A DNA stretch of 64,000 nt from Escherichia phage UGJNEcP1: sequence record OV754623, one strand, 5' to 3'. A program made the translations under genes and the position numbers. Below, piece after piece: positions 598-62,628 of this stretch. Numbering within the stretch: position 1 is the first letter of the stretch; each line of letters begins with the position of its first letter. The notes under the pieces were generated by a model. That model was not told the origin of the DNA, made no database searches, and saw nothing but the letters and a program-made list of their open reading frames with translations.

Positions 598-616
598 AGG
601 GAGACCGAAGTCTCCC
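598..616 (-). terminator. intrinsic terminator hairpin with UUCG tetraloop after gene 32
   Basis: minus strand reads GGGAGAC-UUCG-GUCUCCC followed by UUUUGAG, immediately 3' of gene 32 stop. Confidence 0.6.
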
Positions 617-16846: not shown

Positions 16847-17479
16847 TCACAGTACGTTAGTTACAAGAGTAATGATTTCTTTGGACACATTAGGGAAGTC
16901 AATGTAAGTATATTTACCACCGATCTTAATCTTAACATCATTTTCAAGAGAAGTAAACAGCTTTGATTCAGTTTCTGACATGTTGTATGCAAAGATTCTA
17001 AGAGCGCCATCTCGTCGAATTTCAATTTGGCGAATGCCTAGAACTCGTTTAGCGAATCGAACTTCTAAGTTACTACGGTTTTCACCAATTTCTTTAACTT
17101 CAACTTTATCTTTAATATTTTCAAAAACAAAGTTTGCTAATTCATGCATTTCAGGAGTAACTCCACGTGCTTTTCTAGTGTTACGTTTCTGAAGAAGTTC
17201 TGGAGCATTTTCTTGGGCAAAGAGGTCTGCAGCTTTTTGGATAATATCCATTGCTTCGCCTGTTGCTATAAGTCCATCACCAGATTTTTCGACTAAACCT
17301 TTCTTAATCAATACACCAATGTTAGAGTTAACAACCGATGCATTGTATTCAGCTTCCAGAGCTTCACGGACATTAGCAGCAGTGGTGAAGTTGTTCTTAA
17401 TGATATAAACCATTATTGCAGCAGTTTTTTCATTCAGAGCGTTTTCAGAAGCTTTGATGATGTAAGTAACTTTAGACAT
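16847..17479 (-). CDS. motA: middle-transcription activator MotA
   Basis: ORF 16847..17539; likely start at MSKVTYIIKAS as in T4 MotA; NSNIGVLIKKGLVEKSGDGLI matches T4 MotA as recalled. Confidence 0.9.
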   Translation of the reverse strand: MSKVTYIIKASENALNEKTAAIMVYIIKNNFTTAANVREALEAEYNASVVNSNIGVLIKKGLVEKSGDGLIATGEAMDIIQKAADLFAQENAPELLQKRNTRKARGVTPEMHELANFVFENIKDKVEVKEIGENRSNLEVRFAKRVLGIRQIEIRRDGALRIFAYNMSETESKLFTSLENDVKIKIGGKYTYIDFPNVSKEIITLVTNVL

Positions 17480-17518
17480 TTTATTTCTCCAATTTGGTTG
17501 TTTTGTTTTGATATGTCT

Positions 17519-17547
17519 ATAATACCATGTTTGAAGCAAAAGTAAAC
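17519..17547 (-). promoter_or_regulatory. early promoter for motA (GTTTAC, 17 nt, TATTAT)
   Basis: minus strand GTTTACTTTTGCTTCAAACATGGTATTAT, then GGAG SD and AUG. Confidence 0.55.
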
Positions 17548-17584
17548 TTTATTTTGGGCTCTTTTTCAAAAGCCCTGGTAAAAT

Positions 17585-17800
17585 TTACAAACTCATTTCT
17601 TTAATAAGGCTAATAAGTTTTGCCTTTTTAGAACGAAGCTTTTCTAAATGATGCCCATTTGAACCGCGAACCACTAAAGAATTGATTTCAACTTCTAAGA
17701 AATTTAATTCTTCAACAAGTGCTTTACGGAGAGCATTCATACCAGGTTTAACTTTACCGAAACGAGTAGTTGTGTTTTGAGTTAATTTCATTTTAGACAT
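17585..17800 (-). CDS. hypothetical small basic protein (motA.1 position)
   Basis: 71 aa; begins MSK as MotA does and shares the same promoter/leader sequence. Confidence 0.5.
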   Translation of the reverse strand: MSKMKLTQNTTTRFGKVKPGMNALRKALVEELNFLEVEINSLVVRGSNGHHLEKLRSKKAKLISLIKEMSL

Positions 17801-17839
17801 TTTATTTCTCCAATTTGGCTGTTTTGTTTTGATAGGTTT

Positions 17840-17868
17840 ATAATATCATGTTTGAAGCAAAAGTAAAC
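17840..17868 (-). promoter_or_regulatory. early promoter, near-identical copy of the motA promoter
   Basis: minus strand GTTTACTTTTGCTTCAAACATGATATTAT; about 73 nt near-identical to 17470-17545. Confidence 0.55.
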
Positions 17869-17896
17869 TGTTTTCGTGAGAAAAAAATGCACAAAA

Positions 17897-17912
17897 GGGA
17901 GCTTCGGCTCCC
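17897..17912 (-). terminator. hairpin terminator after gene 52
   Basis: GGGAGC-loop-GCUCCC followed on the minus strand by UUUUGUGCAUUUUUUU. Confidence 0.5.
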
Positions 17913-20103: not shown

Positions 20104-20179
20104 GCTAATTTCCTCAATTGATTAATGTTTTTGTAATCCATGAGAGCATTATACTCTGCTCTCAAGAGTTTGTACAATT

Positions 20180-20380: not shown

Positions 20381-20630
20381 TTTGTGTTCCTCATGTTTCA
20401 GTAGGACTACTATACCATAATCCTACCTTGTTGTAAACAATTAAATTACATTAAAATATGTTAAAGCCAACCATGTTCCTGTGAACGAACACGCAATGTA
20501 AAAACCCGTATCGCAAATTGTTCTTAGTACAATAAGAAGTGCATTTTTCATAAGTACCTCAATGCAATTGAAAATATTATACAAATCATAGGGATACTAA
20601 GCAACCATATTCCGATCCACATTTTAGAGC

Positions 20631-20894
20631 TCATAGCTCAACTTCCGCCAGTTCCATATATCCTTTGTTGATAGTCTCTTTAAGGTCTTTAGAAAGAATG
20701 ACATTAAAATGGTCGTTCATATGTCCGTTAACTAAACGAGTTATTTCGGCTTCAGATGACATATAAGGCACGTCTGAGTCCCAATGAGATAGTCCCAAAT
20801 GGGTATAAATCATCCCTTCGTCATCTGCAGTGTTGTACATTGAAACAAATTCGCCTGTTACTTTATGTTTTGCGTAGAAAAATTTAAATTTCAT
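20631..20894 (-). CDS. hypothetical small protein
   Basis: 87-aa ORF with an early promoter upstream. Confidence 0.45.
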   Translation of the reverse strand: MKFKFFYAKHKVTGEFVSMYNTADDEGMIYTHLGLSHWDSDVPYMSSEAEITRLVNGHMNDHFNVILSKDLKETINKGYMELAEVEL

Positions 20895-20920
20895 AATGTT
20901 ATCCTCTTTTAGATAGGACT

Positions 20921-20950
20921 ACTATAACATAGTCCTACTTAGTTGTAAAC
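20921..20950 (-). promoter_or_regulatory. early promoter with a palindrome spanning the -10 element
   Basis: minus strand GTTTAC-AACTAAGTAGGACTATGTTATAGTAGTCCTA; inverted repeat taggacta/tagtccta around the -10. Confidence 0.45.
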
Positions 20951-20962
20951 ACTTTTATGAAA

Positions 20963-21520
20963 TTAAAGATGAAGATACCACCCGTTGTAGTTGCTCTTGC
21001 GGACGATTTTCTTTAGGTCTTCATGGTCTCCCACAAACTTTATAGAATAAGAGAAGACGTCAGGTGAGGTTTCTTTGACATCTAATATAATAATGCAATC
21101 TGCGACTCGATGATTCAAGAAGGGCCCTATATTGATTCCATTACCACCCGGATAATCACCGCTGTATCCTGTGGTAACCGAAATCCATTTAGAATCTATC
21201 TGATGGGTCTTTACTTCTACGCGTAGACCACAGTACTTAGGATGAGCTAAAACGTCCCACGCATACGTGTACGGGTCTTCTACGTCTTCAATACCTTTAT
21301 TAACATATCCGTCTAGCCAATTTGCTACTACGTACTCTGCAAAGACCGCAACCTTACAACGTCGAACTACATCTTCTTTGTTTTGGTCAGGATTTTGGCT
21401 CAGGGAATACCGAGCAGTGTCAGCAATCTTCACCTTCATTTCACTAGTCAAAAACTCATTCGACAGGATAAATGTCGGAAGATTCTTCAGTCTCAACAGT
21501 CCCAAGTTCGTCTTTACCAT
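20963..21520 (-). CDS. denB: endonuclease IV (DenB) candidate
   Basis: ORF 20963..21583; start at internal MVK gives 185 aa, the T4 DenB length; synteny between ndd and rIIB; sequence identity not verified. Confidence 0.5.
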   Translation of the reverse strand: MVKTNLGLLRLKNLPTFILSNEFLTSEMKVKIADTARYSLSQNPDQNKEDVVRRCKVAVFAEYVVANWLDGYVNKGIEDVEDPYTYAWDVLAHPKYCGLRVEVKTHQIDSKWISVTTGYSGDYPGGNGINIGPFLNHRVADCIIILDVKETSPDVFSYSIKFVGDHEDLKKIVRKSNYNGWYLHL

Positions 21521-25168: not shown

Positions 25169-25260
25169 AATATTCTCTTCAGTAGATTCCTAGGGCACTA
25201 TTACTAAAGACCATATAATCTATCATCTTATGTGTAATAGTGCCTCAGGCTATTCAGGAT

Positions 25261-28221: not shown

Positions 28222-28271
28222 GTTGTCTCCTCGTTATGAAGGTATTCTATCATCCGAAATCTAAAGCAAAA

Positions 28272-28285
28272 AGGGCCGAAGCCCT
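28272..28285 (-). terminator. UUCG-tetraloop hairpin terminator
   Basis: minus strand AGGGC-UUCG-GCCCU followed by UUUUUGCUUUAG. Confidence 0.5.
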
Positions 28286-28728
28286 TATTTAAATTTAATT
28301 TTCTGAAGTGCATCAATTGCAGCTAAACGCCCTTGTTCACTTTTAACTGTAATGACCACATCGCCTGATACGATCACCGAACCATCAACAAATTCTATAG
28401 AGCCTTTTTTGAAATCGACAGCTGTATCTGGTTCCGGAACTTCTTCAAAGAATTTAAATTCTGCACCATAAATCAGAATATCACCTTGCATACTAATGAT
28501 TGTACGTCTAGGTCCATCGGTTTCAGCGGCAATCATTGAAACACCATAACCAATCATCTCTTCTACAATAAAATCTCTTGATAATAAAACTGTATGCAGA
28601 GTAGTGTTAAGACGTTTACCAGTTGTATTAAGAATTCTCAAGAAATTATCTTCTTGACCTTTGATAATACGATATTTCTTACCAACTTCAAAACCTTTAA
28701 AACCTTTAAAAGCCGTATTAAAAGCCAT
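28285..28728 (-). CDS. hypothetical protein (goF/39.x region)
   Basis: 147-aa ORF; no motif recognised. Confidence 0.45.
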   Translation of the reverse strand: MAFNTAFKGFKGFEVGKKYRIIKGQEDNFLRILNTTGKRLNTTLHTVLLSRDFIVEEMIGYGVSMIAAETDGPRRTIISMQGDILIYGAEFKFFEEVPEPDTAVDFKKGSIEFVDGSVIVSGDVVITVKSEQGRLAAIDALQKIKFK

Positions 28729-29341: not shown

Positions 29342-29595
29342 TAAGTTGTACCATTTTCAGTGATTTCACGGAAGATACCATAGATAGGCATTTCATCGCC
29401 GAGTTTTTCGTAAACGTAAACCACTTCGGTGTAGCATAAAAATTCAGTCCAGTTTTTCTGTACAACAACTAAATCAGGATTAAACAGAACATCTTCAAAC
29501 TCATCGATGTTTGAATCGGTAGTTACGTTTTTAATGATTTGACGTTTCATAATATTCTCCTCTTGTTTTGATAGGTCTATAGTATCATAGACCAT
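29323..29595 (-). CDS. hypothetical small protein
   Basis: 90-aa ORF, possibly starting at internal MKRQ. Confidence 0.4.
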
Positions 29596-29607: not shown

Positions 29608-30132
29608 TCATTTTAGCAAAATAAAATCAACTTGTTCTGCCAATGAACGTCTGAACATTAATTGACAACTTCCAAGGATGAAATCAGGTGCTTCATAGAC
29701 CGCGATGTAGTATCCTTTAGCTTTCAAGAGTTCAACATCCACCTGGTCATCAAACCATGCATAGACCGCGTCAACACTTTCAAATCCAAAATAGAACTCT
29801 TGAGCCCAATCTTCGCTCAATTCAAATGTGTGCTCAATTCTATGGTATCTTAAGGTATTTTGTTCAAGGAGTTTGTCTTCATTTACTGTAGGACGATTAG
29901 GGACATTATAGTTGTCGCCATGATGGTAGAAGTTACCTGAGAGTATTCCATGCTTATCAAGGAACTCCCATGTTTCTTCAGAGTTGTCGGTGCCCGACCA
30001 ACCGTATGGCGAACGAGGTTCTTTATTCCAAGAGGTTTCCCAAATTCTGACGGCTTTACCGTCTTCAATAGCAATTCCTGGTAATGATTCACGTTGAGTA
30101 CAAAAACTACGTTCTACTCGGTAAACTAACAT
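29608..30132 (-). CDS. hypothetical protein
   Basis: 174-aa ORF with an early promoter upstream. Confidence 0.5.
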   Translation of the reverse strand: MLVYRVERSFCTQRESLPGIAIEDGKAVRIWETSWNKEPRSPYGWSGTDNSEETWEFLDKHGILSGNFYHHGDNYNVPNRPTVNEDKLLEQNTLRYHRIEHTFELSEDWAQEFYFGFESVDAVYAWFDDQVDVELLKAKGYYIAVYEAPDFILGSCQLMFRRSLAEQVDFILLK

Positions 30133-30158
30133 ATTATTCTCCTCTGGTTGATATGGTT

Positions 30159-30187
30159 ATAATATCAAAACCAGAGGAGAAGTAAAC
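30159..30187 (-). promoter_or_regulatory. early promoter flanked by an inverted repeat
   Basis: plus gtaaac 30182-30187 and ataata 30159-30164; arms cctctggtt/aaccagagg flank the -10 region. Confidence 0.45.
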
Positions 30188-31673: not shown

Positions 31674-31703
31674 ATTATACTCCAACCATCCTTGGTTGTA
31701 AAC
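31674..31703 (-). promoter_or_regulatory. early promoter in front of paralog C
   Basis: minus strand GTTTAC-AACCAAGGATGGTTGGAG-TATAAT. Confidence 0.5.
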
Positions 31704-37634: not shown

Positions 37635-37712
37635 ATTGTTCTCCTCTTGAGTAAGTAAGAATATCTTAACACAGTTTTTAGCGGTTGTAAACTGTAGAAA
37701 CAAAAAAAAAAA

Positions 37713-37730
37713 GGAATCCCGAAGGATTCC
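37713..37730 (-). terminator. UUCG-tetraloop hairpin terminator after soc
   Basis: minus strand GGAAUCC-UUCG-GGAUUCC followed by a run of 11 U. Confidence 0.7.
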
Positions 37731-41518: not shown

Positions 41519-41581
41519 TTTAACTCCTTAGTTGATTTGATAGGACTACTATACTATAGTCCATCTATAATGTAAACAAGT

Positions 41582-43040: not shown

Positions 43041-43095
43041 TTTGTTCTCCAGTAGTTGATAGGTCTATAATAACACAACTACTGGAGAAGTAAAC

Positions 43096-43470
43096 TTAAA
43101 AACGTAATTTAGATATATCTGCGTTGATTTCGTTTTGGTTTGCGTCGTATGCAATTAAACGAACCGCTTTAGATGGGTCATTCAATGCATAGAAATGATG
43201 GAACATTGCTCGAACGATATCACCATTTACGAGTTCTACCTGGATAGGAGAACCTTTTTCGAGTTGGAAATGTTCATAAGCTTTGATGGTTCGTAGATAA
43301 TCAAGTTTTTGATTTCCAGCTCCAACTATTTGTACGATACGTTTGCCCATGTTTTCCATACGAGATACAATAGTTTTAGGAGCAAGAATAACGTAGGTTG
43401 CCAGCGGAGAAACTACTTCAACAGTTGTGTTTTCGGTGATTGCAGTAAAAATTGCTTGAGACATATTCAT
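43096..43470 (-). CDS. hypothetical protein
   Basis: 124-aa ORF downstream of gene 41 with a promoter-like sequence upstream. Confidence 0.5.
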   Translation of the reverse strand: MNMSQAIFTAITENTTVEVVSPLATYVILAPKTIVSRMENMGKRIVQIVGAGNQKLDYLRTIKAYEHFQLEKGSPIQVELVNGDIVRAMFHHFYALNDPSKAVRLIAYDANQNEINADISKLRF

Positions 43471-43535
43471 AATGTTTTCCTCTTGGTTTGTGTAAGTGCA
43501 TCATATCATGCCTAGAGGAAGATGTAAACCCCGAA

Positions 43536-43553
43536 AGGAGACCGAAGTCTCCT
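43536..43553 (-). terminator. tetraloop hairpin after gene 41
   Basis: AGGAGAC-loop-GUCUCCU; U-tract on the plus side, GTTTAC promoter element follows on the minus side. Confidence 0.4.
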
Positions 43554-50274: not shown

Positions 50275-50679
50275 TTATTGTAGATTCGGTTTATATGATT
50301 TAAATGTTTCGAATTCGCCTTTATTCATAAGAGCTTTGAATTCGTCAGGACGCATAGCTTTGTCGTCGATAATCCAATCATATACTGGTTTATGTGTTAG
50401 CAAATTATGGTACTTCAAGCCAATGTTTGCCAAGTTCTGAATCAGACTTGGGAGAATGTCAATTGCTATACGACCAGGACCTACTGACTTCATACCGCGA
50501 GCAGTGTAAAGCGTTATGGTATGCCCTGCATCATACAGGGCATTAATGGCAGACACCATTTCGACGTCTGGTTTGAAGTTCACGTAATCACGATTGTTAT
50601 TCCACTCTGTTATACAATCATCGACATCAAAACAAAGATTAAGCATGTTTTCTACACGGTGCATTAGATTCGTTCCCAT
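50275..50679 (-). CDS. HAD-superfamily phosphatase-like protein
   Basis: 134 aa; LCFDVDDCIT (DxD motif I), TLYTARG (motif II), IIDDK (motif IV). Confidence 0.55.
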   Translation of the reverse strand: MGTNLMHRVENMLNLCFDVDDCITEWNNNRDYVNFKPDVEMVSAINALYDAGHTITLYTARGMKSVGPGRIAIDILPSLIQNLANIGLKYHNLLTHKPVYDWIIDDKAMRPDEFKALMNKGEFETFKSYKPNLQ

Positions 50680-59332: not shown

Positions 59333-59374
59333 TTAATTTGATGTGGTCATTATAACCACATCGTGTTAAAGCGT

Positions 59375-62559: not shown

Positions 62560-62610
62560 ATTATTTCCTCATTAGTTAATTCATTTTATCATCCGTTTAT
62601 AAAGCAAAAA

Positions 62611-62628
62611 AGGAACTCCGAAGAGTTC
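62611..62628 (-). terminator. UUCG-tetraloop hairpin terminator upstream of gene 47
   Basis: minus strand GGAACUC-UUCG-GAGUUCC followed by UUUUUUGC. Confidence 0.6.

Follow-up and report, generated by a model that had tools for sequence, protein, structure and literature searches.

Stem-loop at the denB-downstream promoter

The window, a stretch of 64,000 nucleotides of Escherichia phage UGJNEcP1 (sequence record OV754623), represents a Mosigvirus (RB69-like T-even phage) and is 99.97% identical to Escherichia phage UGJNEcP2. Between denB and a downstream ORF of 87 amino acids (20631-20894), it contains the minus-strand early promoter P20950 (20921-20950), composed of the -35 hexamer GTTTAC (20950-20945), an 18-nt spacer with a TGn motif, and the -10 hexamer TATAGT (20926-20921), and followed by a Shine-Dalgarno (SD) sequence GAGGA (20906-20902) and an ATG codon (20894-20892). 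The -10 region is enclosed in a minus-strand stem-loop, TAGGACTA-TGTTATAG-TAGTCCTA (20914-20937; RNA minimum free energy (MFE) -13.2 kcal/mol, z = -3.5), in which TATAGT extends from the loop into the 3' arm by one base. The predicted +1 of P20950, the A at 20914, is the final base of this arm. Here and below, the +1 positions are predictions that rely on the usual distance of 7 nt and on the C-rich positions -3 to -1, the latter being a feature of RB69 early promoters (PMC1524935).

The promoters associated with palindromes share GTTTAC/GTGTAC-like -35 hexamers, spacers of 17-18 nt, and TAnnnT -10 hexamers, often extended by TGn; they lie on the minus (early-gene) strand and are preceded by A/T-rich sequence. 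They occupy short gaps between small early genes (55-76 nt, and 250 nt at P20438), and an SD with an ATG follows 20-40 nt downstream of each of the five promoters flagged in the first-pass annotation. Embedded hairpins are present in 8 of the 22 early promoters of the window (about a third). A strong hairpin of any sort is absent from 9 of the 22, and thus the element is not obligatory. A comparison of the whole window with Rfam covariance models gave no match at gathering thresholds.

All five minus-strand inverted repeats reported in the first-pass annotation were found, with offsets of a few bases: 71-98 corresponds to 69-92 (extendable to 67-94), 20913-20938 to 20914-20937, 29568-29589 to 29574-29593, 30139-30177 to 30137-30181, and 41540-41567 to 41543-41562. 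They had all been described as centred on -10 elements, which merged two architectures. In class A, the -10 lies between arms of 6-10 bp, and the predicted +1 is where the 3' arm ends. The repeat at 30139-30177 belongs to class B, in which a helix of 13-14 bp extends from the spacer to the SD and the predicted start site lies in the loop. The members at 20401-20426, 20141-20164, 43045-43089, and 59340-59362 had been missed.

Other class A stem-loops and class B helices

Five further class A stem-loops were identified, all on the minus strand. The most stable one, GATAGGGCTA-TGTTATAG-TAGCCCTATC (67-94; MFE -18.7, z = -5.6), has the core TAGGGCTA/TAGCCCTA at 69-92 and belongs to promoter P105 (-35 GTGTAC at 105-100) upstream of a frd.1-like ORF; Karamvirus PG7 has a related hairpin, AGGGCTATAGT/ACTATAGCCCT, in its frd.1 promoter. 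Promoter P20438, upstream of ndd.1, carries GTAGGATTA-TGGTATAG-TAGTCCTAC (20401-20426; MFE -13.6, z = -4.6), whose stem has one sense-strand U.G pair. The ndd promoter P20177 (-35 TTGTAC, -10 TATAAT) carries TGAGAGCA-GAGTATAA-TGCTCTCA (20141-20164; MFE -13.9, z = -3.8). The two remaining ones are GGTCTAT-GATACT-ATAGACC (29574-29593; MFE -9.5, z = -4.3) in promoter P29608 (-35 ATGTAC, -10 TACTAT) upstream of cef, and GGACTA-TAGTATAG-TAGTCC (41543-41562; MFE -11.1, z = -3.4) in promoter P41577 between imm and sp.

Class B is represented by two minus-strand helices. In promoter P30187 the 5' arm of TTCTCCTCTGGTT...AACCAGAGGAGAA (30137-30181; MFE -23.9, z = -8.0) begins straight after the -35, the loop holds the -10 TATTAT and the predicted +1, and the 3' arm includes GAGGAG, the SD of the downstream ORF. 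In promoter P43095 the 14-bp helix TTCTCCAGTAGTTG...CAACTACTGGAGAA (43045-43089; MFE -21.1, z = -4.9) has the SD GGAG within its 3' arm. Thus, in class B only, the SD is paired in a stable helix and a promoter (with its inferred +1) lies inside the structure. Promoter P43529 (region 43477-43552, minus strand) has a canonical terminator, GGAGAC-TTCG-GTCTCC with a T run (43537-43552), adjoining its -35, and also a weaker 7-bp spacer-to-SD pairing, TTCCTCT/AGAGGAA (43477-43520).

Two smaller features, also on the minus strand, resemble these elements. At 59340-59362, the -10 of a MotA-type middle promoter, CGCTTTA-N12-TATAAT, is flanked by GATGTGGT/ACCACATC (30-nt MFE -13.3), and this site is the middle-promoter counterpart ('PmSL') of the early elements. 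A weak spacer hairpin, AACCA-AGGA-TGGTT (31684-31697), lies directly upstream of the P31703 -10. Taken alone it may be a chance match; its layout is that of the denB-downstream promoter hairpins of Dhakavirus (CACCA-TGGA-TGGTG) and T4 (TACCAC-N7-GTGGTA).

Complementarity of the arms among copies and relatives

The first-pass annotation had noted compensatory arm differences between copies, which was borne out: the centre pair is G:C, A:T, or T:A. The 23 distinct sequences of the family show pairing in 92.3% of cells and reach a covariation score of 0.267; shuffled sequences score 0.164, and none of 500 shuffles was as high. Orthologous promoters of four genera differ in their arms as well, yet remain complementary. 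At the denB-downstream promoter the arms are TAGGACTA/TAGTCCTA in Mosigvirus, TACCAC/GTGGTA in T4, CACCA/TGGTG or CGCCA/TGGTG (with one G.U) in Dhakavirus, and CTCCGTTAG/CTAACGGAG, in the spacer-to-SD arrangement, in Karamvirus. Similarly, the ndd promoter has TGAGAGCA/TGCTCTCA in Mosigvirus and CGAGAATCAT/ATGGTTCTCG in Dhakavirus around an identical -10. Complementarity is thus kept despite sequence change, both across paralogous copies and across orthologous promoters, in agreement with the nucleic-acid hairpin that had been offered as one of two options.

Relatives were taken from GenBank phage records, and a stem finder allowing G.T and A.C was restricted to stems of at least 8 pairs, because it yields spurious 7-mers. 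Stem variants were counted by eye in orthologous alignments only, the automated tally being contaminated by paralogous promoters and recombinant alleles. Among about 12 Mosigvirus genomes, eight single arm transitions led to a sense-strand G.U pair and one turned U.G into U-A (phage LF82-31 at P20438, TAGGATTA/TAATCCTA), versus two that gave A.C; the asymmetry rests on few events (9 vs. 2, p about 0.03). One double compensatory change was found in the same genomes. In ESCO47, a G-C pair of the helix at 30137-30181 has become A-U by compensated change. Pairing at the centre is lost in LF82-31 at P41577 and in ATK48 and L158 at P29608. Altogether, 6 disruptive stem changes were seen, against about 15 expected by scaling background rates by hand (a ~2.5-fold depletion).

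Since changes of the G.U type break the dyad symmetry of DNA but keep the pairing within one strand, they speak for a fold of the sense strand over a dimeric protein site; the pattern of variants favours such folding, most likely of RNA. A hairpin of that strand in single-stranded DNA tolerates G.T as well. A terminator read on the antisense (plus) strand was rejected, as each G.U pair seen would correspond to a C.A mismatch on that strand.

A DenB-anchored search of IMG/VR retrieved 16 loci, which amounts to a comparison between genera with few Mosigviruses. The pattern GTTTAC-N17-19-TATAGTAG, with 14 fixed bases, matched 120 IMG/VR loci, nearly all random, with ~6 T-even promoters among them, and a metagenome scan with the conserved 23-mer downstream of the flagged site found 2 contigs only.

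Position of the stem-loops relative to +1 and to terminators

As the predicted +1 closes the 3' arm in class A and lies in the loop in class B, the transcript of the promoter itself does not contain the hairpin. Given these predicted start sites, the hairpin is confined to read-through RNA that originates upstream or to single-stranded DNA. The earlier proposal of a hairpin in the leader transcript therefore fails, as does a leader structure in the mRNA that the promoter itself produces, and SHAPE on leaders would detect nothing.

In read-through RNA, the stem-loops could be efficient Rho-independent terminators of the ordinary kind, serving the upstream gene and happening to overlap the next promoter, which is the literal 'promoter-terminator' reading of the PeSL elements (early promoter plus stem-loop) of T4-type phages. 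The GenBank record of Mosigvirus SA79RD indeed labels the denB, ndd.1, and ndd hairpins as rho-independent terminators (WebGeSTer, TransTermHP), and a PeSL stem-loop of phage phi1 cut lacZ expression as much as rrnB T1 (PMC2839356). Moreover, the embedded hairpin is missing where a canonical upstream terminator is present. Promoters 567, 17547, 17868, 37692, and 43529 have a strong upstream hairpin or canonical terminator and neither a class A stem-loop nor a full 13-14 bp class B helix, the reverse holds for promoters with a class A or full class B structure, and in LF82-31 and ESCO47 a P43095 allele without the 5' arm lies directly behind a canonical terminator.

However, the genuine terminators of the window (599-616, 17897-17912, 37713-37730, and 43537-43552) look different, with GC-rich stems, UUCG-type tetraloops, and T runs. 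Class A stems are AU-rich with loops of 6-8 nt, and no U-tract follows them on the sense strand, where the tails are A-rich (UCUAAAAG, UCAAAUAA, UGGAUUAC, and similar), and thus they do not qualify as canonical terminators. They also differ from the phi1 stem-loop assayed with lacZ, which belongs to the GGGG/CCCC type, and the ARNold-based annotation of phage ATK48 does not call class A hairpins terminators. Our terminator scan flagged 20914-20937 and 29574-29593 on the plus strand only. Judging from these features, efficient intrinsic termination at class A stems is unlikely. A literature search found no maps of transcript 3' ends or transcription start sites for RB69 or T4.

Frequency of the palindromes in early promoters

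The palindromes could also lack a function of their own, if one palindromic promoter cassette had been duplicated around the genome and the remainder reflected consensus and chance. The TATAGT promoters 105, 20438, 20950, and 41577 are clearly paralogous over ~30 nt. Additionally, the 3' arm of class A (AGNCCTA) is the conserved discriminator/start-site motif of Mosigvirus early promoters, so the likeness of the arms between copies is partly promoter consensus, and in ESCO47 a TATAGTAGTCCTATC promoter has no 5' arm at all.

To preserve the consensus in a control, the 5' and 3' halves of promoters were swapped to give chimeras. The native mean MFE was -5.3 kcal/mol, as compared with -2.8 kcal/mol for permuted pairings (-2.6 for all chimeric pairs), and was matched by 0 of 20,000 permutations (p = 5e-5). 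A 30-nt MFE of -11 or lower was found in 5 of 20 objectively chosen promoters vs. 0.5% of 2,205 other -10-like hexamers (p = 4.5e-8). Several of the low-MFE hexamers in this background set are the same palindromes in shifted register. The z-scores of individual hairpins range from -3.4 to -8. Clearly, the palindromes are far more common than chance or the promoter consensus permits, which was the comparison posed beforehand, and they are not a by-product of an AT-rich consensus, in line with the first-pass annotation. With unrelated arms at other promoters and at orthologous sites of other genera, compensated differences between paralogues and between orthologues, and the depletion of disruptive substitutions, the absence of a function is disfavoured and appears quite improbable.

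Variable ORFs between promoter cassettes

Two 83-nt promoter cassettes form a 93% identical direct repeat on the minus strand (17471-17553 and 17792-17874, within 17471-17874) and bracket an ORF (17585-17800) that is absent in F2, ESCO47, and phiC120, and present in LF82-31, SF, NHEP10, and Shf125875. Likewise, F2 lacks the ORF that separates P30187 from P29608 and has a hybrid of these two promoters, and LF82-31 and ESCO47 lack the homologue of ORF041c that lies between P43529 and P43095.

Such gain and loss among close relatives of ORFs bracketed by hairpin promoters would fit a repeat acting at the DNA level, as a cruciform or single-strand hairpin that modulates promoter opening or marks promoter-ORF cassettes for structure-specific recombination. 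Arbiol et al. speculated that the stem-loop is a target of recombination proteins and cited T4 deletions ending at GGGC/GCCC inverted repeats (PMC2839356); the site at 67-94 includes GGGC...GCCC, and the G.T bias fits a DNA hairpin of the non-template strand too. Nevertheless, we regard this possibility as doubtful. Arms of 6-10 bp with 8-nt spacers extrude poorly, no recombinase is known, and T(-7) of the -10, if held in the stem, would hinder sigma-70, so that a formed DNA hairpin would mean a promoter turned off. Furthermore, the recombinant alleles (the F2 hybrid and P43095 of LF82-31 and ESCO47) are joined inside the -10/discriminator homology and not at the stem, and junctions in this conserved homology fit plain homologous recombination.

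The sense-strand G.T bias, the conservation of structure and not of sequence, and the indels flanked by cassettes are compatible with a more specific version, in which the hairpins would be no RNA signals but strand-specific single-stranded DNA folds (in replication or recombination) and attC-like recombination sites, and the T-even promoter-ORF modules would be integron-like, with no known integrase; this we hold to be very improbable.

An operator for a dimeric phage or host protein, shutting early promoters off, is hardly credible: although TAGGNCTA-N8-TAGNCCTA recurs over the -10 at five sites, where a repressor could plausibly bind, and the phage has genes for several small early proteins that bind DNA (MotB-like, DsbA, Mrh), neither one half-site everywhere nor a maintained duplex dyad symmetry was found at the window and orthologous sites, where the arms in equivalent positions are unrelated (TAGGNCTA, TGAGAGCA, GGTCTAT, and GATGTGGT here, and CGAGAATC, TACCAC, and CACCA in other genera), the variable centre base covaries, which a protein ignoring that base would not need, symmetry-breaking G.T-type changes are the commonest single variants, and only about a third of early promoters have the repeat, all of which counts against the dimeric DNA-binding site that had been suggested as the other option.

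Proposed function of the promoter stem-loops

Taken together, the sequence comparisons suggest, with a probability of about 0.6, that the elements are composite cassettes of the PeSL type, in which a T-even early promoter has a built-in stem-loop acting on the sense strand in read-through RNA. The structure would be selected on that strand and would form in RNA reading through from upstream early or middle promoters. Class A may serve as an intercistronic insulator, either as a weak attenuator or pause signal or as a barrier that shields the end of the upstream cistron from 3'-to-5' decay, and would replace the canonical terminator that is found in longer intergenic gaps. Class B would additionally hide the SD, and the downstream ORF would then be translated from the transcript of its own promoter and not from read-through RNA. 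Conservation of the promoter and hairpin sequences could incidentally provide the patches of homology at which promoter-ORF modules are gained or lost.

For annotation, the short early gene gaps of RB69-like phages pack a promoter and a hairpin into one unit of 45-60 nt, and terminator predictors disagree on these hairpins. For engineering, the units probably insulate neighbouring early cistrons, and their spacer-to-SD form probably makes translation depend on the gene's own promoter; thus, an ORF that is deleted or moved without its cassette may alter the expression of its neighbours. For evolution, the units bracket ORFs that vary between near-identical phages, which extends the PeSL picture to another T-even genus. 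The current understanding is unchanged by these PeSL members.

Comparison with known systems

Class A stem-loops resemble intrinsic terminators in lying just past a stop codon in an intergenic gap and in being called by two programs, and differ from them in their AU-rich stems, large loops, and lack of a U-tract.

With integron attC sites and the hairpin promoters of phage N4, the elements share the maintenance of structure rather than sequence and the folding of one strand; with attC, they also share the link to mobile ORF cassettes, promoter-less or promoter-bearing, a comparison drawn by Arbiol et al. (PMC2839356). Unlike in those systems, there is no integrase and no virion RNA polymerase here. 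The stems are much shorter than those of attC, the N4 hairpins form on the template strand with 3-nt loops, and DNA folding is hypothetical for the hairpins described here.

The class B helices (30137-30181 and 43045-43089) are similar to the SD-sequestering helices with an internal promoter in the T4 genes e, soc, 49, and I-TevI (PMC3014915): a long helix buries the SD, and the internal promoter follows the 5' strand of that helix, which leaves the SD free only in transcripts that begin at this promoter. In T4, however, the internal promoter is late and the silenced RNA is early or middle read-through, whereas both class B promoters are of the early GTTTAC type and not late (gp55) promoters. 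Class B would therefore tie translation to the gene's own promoter and not delay it to late times.

The closest known system is the PeSL, which was not recognised in the first-pass annotation. It is defined as an early promoter with a stem-loop, 'most commonly between -35 and -10 or overlapping the -10 box', and one of the five published stem-loop positions overlaps the -10 (PMC2839356). Terminator and promoter activity of PeSLs was measured in lacZ assays for phi1/RB49, and the formation of mini-circles was reported for the same phages (Arbiol et al. 2010, PMC2839356). PeSLs were later extended to T4/PST, with the ndd-denB locus included (Comeau et al. 2014, PMC4122927); our literature search found no further phage papers on PeSL beyond these two. 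The elements of the window differ in belonging to the Mosigvirus (RB69-like) lineage, outside both papers, in their AU-rich stems of the TAGGNCTA type without a U-tract, as compared with GGGG/CCCC in RB49/phi1, and in enclosing the -10, in contrast to PST/T4, for which the published drawings place the stem-loops immediately before the promoter. Neither paper reports a G.U pattern with strand bias or a division into two architectures. In all other respects the layout is the same: an AT-rich upstream region, an early sigma-70-type promoter, a stem-loop adjoining or overlapping it at the spacer or -10, and then an SD and the start of a mostly small ORF. The copies are intergenic and many, lie mainly in plastic early regions, and flank insertions, deletions, or replacements between close relatives, and ndd-denB is itself a published T4/PST example. 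The hairpin promoters are thus the already described PeSL cassette of T4-type phages, and not a new regulatory device.

Palindromic Early Promoters of the Window

The 3 kb around the inverted repeat at 20914-20937 matched Escherichia phage UGJNEcP2 (Mosigvirus, RB69-like Tevenvirinae) at 100%, and about 150 other Mosigviruses were 95–98% identical to it. Over the 64 kb, UGJNEcP2 differed from the window by four substitutions (2399, 13151, 15836, 61510) and two insertions: 12 nt in the window at 28706-28717, an in-frame near-tandem duplication (TTAAAAGCCGTA) within a small ORF, and an extra A/T at 37702, in the T run of the terminator 37713-37730. None of these differences touched the hairpin sites discussed here. 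The UGJNEcP2 annotation, transferred with shifts of +12 after 28706 and +13 after 37702, placed the repeat in the rIIB-denB-ndd early region between denB (20963-21439, minus strand), its upstream neighbour, and a small ORF (20631-20894, minus strand). Elsewhere, a segH-like homing endonuclease gene (2288-2971) lies between genes 59 and 33; it is also present in Shf125875 and missing from F2, LF82-31, ESCO47 and others.

On the minus strand the site reads GTTTAC-aactaag-TAGGACTA-tgtTATAG-TAGTCCTA-tctaaaaGAGGAtaacattATG, with the -35 at 20950-20945, an extended -10 (TGtTATAGT, hexamer 20926-20921), and arms at 20937-20930 and 20921-20914. In SF, NHEP10 and ESh27 (L147, L149, L150), TACAGT replaces TATAGT as the -10 of this denB-downstream promoter, and both hairpin arms are unaltered.

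All five inverted repeats listed by the first-pass annotation were found, 1–6 nt away from where it had placed them. A scan for a -35 with at most two mismatches to GTTTAC, a 16–18 nt spacer, a TAnnnT hexamer, and a downstream Shine-Dalgarno (SD) sequence, ATG and ORF yielded 19 minus-strand promoters, to which P105 at the window edge was added (promoters are numbered by position). Inspection of all intergenic gaps revealed four more palindromic promoters on the minus strand: those of ndd.1 (20401-20426) and ndd (20141-20164), one at 43045-43089, and a MotA-box middle promoter at 59340-59362. The ndd promoter with its hairpin (20130-20179, about 50 nt) matches at about 90% in phages with non-matching flanks, such as Salmonella phage vB_SenS_Jbel; this cassette is conserved past its neighbours. 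Two other minus-strand palindromes were seen: a long-range inverted repeat, GGCACTATTAC…GTAATAGTGCC, with 11-bp arms about 40 nt apart, in the 92-nt gap upstream of rIIA.1 (25169-25260), where this strand has no GTTTAC promoter, and a perfect 10-bp palindrome, ATGCCCTG-TATGAT-GCAGGGCAT, at about 50510-50545 (30-nt MFE -15.5), which is centred on a -10-like hexamer within a coding region and lacks a -35.

Pairing Exceeds Chance and Is Retained across Genera

To retain all position-specific preferences, the 5' half of one promoter was joined to the 3' half of another. The native mean MFE was -5.3 kcal/mol in the 30 nt around the -10, versus a mean of -2.8 for the permuted pairings, and -10.1 versus -7.5 from the -35 to the ATG; the native mean was attained in 0 of 20,000 permutations (p = 5e-5). 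This test is conservative, because paralogous promoters cross-pair. A 30-nt MFE of -11 or lower was found at 5/20 promoters but at only 0.5% of 2,205 other -10-like hexamers in the window (p = 4.5e-8), half of these background extremes being these very palindromes read in a shifted register or on the opposite strand. Single hairpins had z-scores of -3.4 to -8 against dinucleotide shuffles. The excess of palindromes at GTTTAC promoters, for which the first-pass annotation had proposed shuffled controls, goes beyond both chance and the promoter consensus.

One family, TAGGNCTA-N8-TAGN'CCTA with N:N' being G:C, A:T or T:A, comprises the cef promoter and the four TATAGT promoters. In 23 distinct family sequences from this phage and its relatives, pairing held in 92.3% of cells, the covariation score was 0.267 versus 0.164 in shuffles (0/500 as high), and sliding the partner by 1–3 columns lowered pairing to 27–57%. 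This bears out the earlier claim that the arms vary between copies while their central pairs stay complementary. The similarity of the arms is in part promoter consensus: the 3' arm AGNCCTA doubles as discriminator and start-site motif (…AGACCTATCAA) and recurs in many promoters without a hairpin, and the palindrome is due to the 5' arm, which lies in the spacer.

Stronger evidence than this paralogue covariation comes from orthologous promoters of other genera. Downstream of denB, Mosigvirus has the arms TAGGACTA/TAGTCCTA; at this promoter T4 has TACCAC-N7-GTGGTA, Dhakavirus has CACCA-TGGA-TGGTG, with a G.U where some members carry CGCCA, and Karamvirus PG7 pairs spacer to SD in a 9-bp helix, CTCCGTTAG/CTAACGGAG. 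Similarly, the arms TGAGAGCA/TGCTCTCA of the ndd promoter in the window correspond to CGAGAATCAT/ATGGTTCTCG in Dhakavirus, and both pairs enclose the same TATAAT. Across genera a hairpin is retained, while its sequence and even its exact place change.

Stem Variants Favour Folding of the Sense Strand

We compared distinct changes at orthologous sites of nine hairpins (164 stem nucleotides) in about 12 Mosigvirus genomes. Eight single transitions produced sense-strand G.U pairs: P20438 has three of them, P105 has one in either arm, and P20950, P29608 and P43095 have one apiece. In LF82-31 a G-to-A converts the U.G of P20438 to U-A, and ESCO47 carries one double compensatory change, G-C to A-U, at P30187. 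Transitions producing A.C numbered two (F2 at P43095, contig L158 at P29608), and transversion mismatches four (ESh27 at P20438, LF82-31 at P41577, ATK48 at P29608 and P30187). At 28,311 aligned background sense-strand sites the two kinds of transition were about equal (47% wobble-compatible); hand-scaled to 164 nt, these rates predict about 7 transitions of each kind, compatible and incompatible, and 8 transversions. Thus, compatible stem changes occurred at the neutral rate, and disruptive ones were depleted about 2.5-fold (6 observed versus about 15 expected, hand-scaled). The transitions split 9 to 2 between compatible and A.C (one-sided p ~0.03, on small numbers). Other genera have further sense-strand G.U pairs: Dhakavirus has them in its ndd promoter and its CGCCA/TGGTG stem, and the T4 group in its class B helices (defined below). 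In several genomes the centre pair no longer matches; the constraint is thus a moderate one.

This wobble-type pattern favours folding of the sense strand, albeit on small numbers, and an RNA and a same-strand DNA hairpin would both fit it. The first-pass annotation had offered a dimeric DNA-binding site or a hairpin; the hairpin stands, whereas the sense-strand G.U changes argue against a protein reading a symmetric duplex. The variant pattern likewise argues against a function of the antisense strand.

Two Architectures and the Predicted Position of +1

The five repeats had been described as one kind centred on the -10, which fits class A but not 30137-30181. In class A (67-94, 20141-20164, 20401-20426, 20914-20937, 29574-29593 and 41543-41562, all minus strand), arms of 6–10 bp surround a 6–8 nt loop containing most of the -10, and the 3' arm spans T(-7) to the predicted +1. 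In class B (30137-30181 and 43045-43089, with a weak member at 43477-43520, all minus strand), the 5' arm directly follows the -35, the loop contains the -10 and +1, and the 3' arm is the SD region; the helices have 13–14 bp (-24 and -21 kcal/mol). We placed +1 by the usual 7-nt distance and a C-rich -3 to -1, the latter known from RB69 early promoters (PMC1524935).

With +1 so placed, the promoter's own transcript would lack the 5' arm in both classes, contrary to the proposal of a hairpin in its leader. The hairpin is therefore predicted to be possible only in RNA coming from further upstream or in single-stranded DNA. Overall, the first-pass interpretation was half right, holding for the hairpin and failing for the dimeric site and the own-transcript leader.

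Embedded Hairpins and Terminators

Clear intrinsic terminators, with a GC-rich stem, a UUCG-type tetraloop and a T run, occur for example at 599-616, 17897-17912, 37713-37730 and 43537-43552, and several adjoin the -35 or MotA box of the following promoter. At 28271-28286 and about 62560-62628 (minus strand; …CCCTTTTTGCTTTA…, …TTCCTTTTTTGCTTTA…), the T run passes straight into the MotA box, so that a canonical terminator and a middle promoter have bases in common.

None of the five early promoters with a strong upstream hairpin has a class A hairpin or a full class B helix; P43529, one of the five, retains just a weak spacer-to-SD pairing of 7 bp. An embedded hairpin is present at eight promoters, which lack an upstream terminator and lie mostly in the shortest gaps (55–76 nt; the exception is P20438, 250 nt). 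The probability of zero overlap was about 0.08 (hypergeometric, computed by hand). Moreover, the P43095 allele of LF82-31 and ESCO47, from which the 5' arm has been lost, immediately follows a canonical terminator. Given this lack of overlap and this allele, the embedded hairpin looks like a compact stand-in for a terminator. Class A stems are followed by A-rich tails with no U-tract, and a terminator scan flagged two of them, only on the plus strand; class A hairpins are labelled terminators in the SA79RD annotation (WebGeSTer, TransTermHP) but are not called as such in that of ATK48 (ARNold). On the favoured reading, class A hairpins would act as weak attenuators, pause signals or 3'-exonuclease barriers at the end of the upstream cistron, and class B helices would mask the SD in read-through RNA. 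T4 masks the SD by such a device in genes e, soc, 49 and I-TevI (PMC3014915); here, in contrast, an early promoter lies within the helix.

Relation to PeSL Cassettes

Indels accompany these promoters. An 83-nt direct repeat (17471-17553 and 17792-17874, 93% identical) encloses a 71-aa ORF (17585-17800) upstream of motA. Each copy holds a whole early promoter, in which a MotA box (TTTGCTT) is embedded, together with the leader, the SD and the first codons (ATGTCTAAA). The ORF was not found in F2, ESCO47 or phiC120, whereas LF82-31, SF, NHEP10 and Shf125875 have it. ORFs 29608-30132 (between P30187 and P29608) and 43096-43470 (between P43529 and P43095), both on the minus strand, have hairpin-bearing early promoters on both sides; the former is missing in F2, where a hybrid promoter takes its place, and the latter in LF82-31 and ESCO47, a single hybrid or third-allele promoter standing wherever either is missing. 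No Rfam family matched.

Promoter-early stem-loops (PeSLs), which combine an early promoter with a stem-loop, were defined in RB49 and phi1 by Arbiol et al. in 2010; about 50 occur per genome, mostly preceding small ORFs in plastic regions, in five subclasses by stem-loop position, most commonly between -35 and -10 or overlapping the -10 (PMC2839356). Their terminator and promoter activities were measured, they participate in indels and mini-circle formation, and AT-rich counterparts on T4 early promoters were noted as 'analogous' (PMC2839356). The same paper mentions T4 deletions whose ends are GGGC/GCCC inverted repeats (PMC2839356); GGGC…GCCC is also present in the site 67-94. Comeau et al. 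in 2014 extended PeSLs to T4/PST and KVP40/nt-1, used the ndd-denB locus to illustrate them, and also reported versions on middle promoters (PmSLs) (PMC4122927). The middle promoter at 59340-59362 (minus strand) carries the analogue of the hairpins seen at early promoters and can be compared with the PmSL of Vibrio phage nt-1; there the -10 of a MotA-type promoter, CGCTTTA-N12-TATAAT, is flanked by 8-bp arms, GATGTGGT/ACCACATC (30-nt MFE -13.3), at 59340-59362.

Taken together, the hairpin promoters of the window show every sequence-level feature of PeSLs, including the association with indels, and by these features they are further PeSL-type members, from a genus outside the coverage of the PeSL papers. 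What they add to those papers is modest: the distinction between two architectures, the placement of the hairpin relative to the predicted +1, and the wobble bias of the sense strand.
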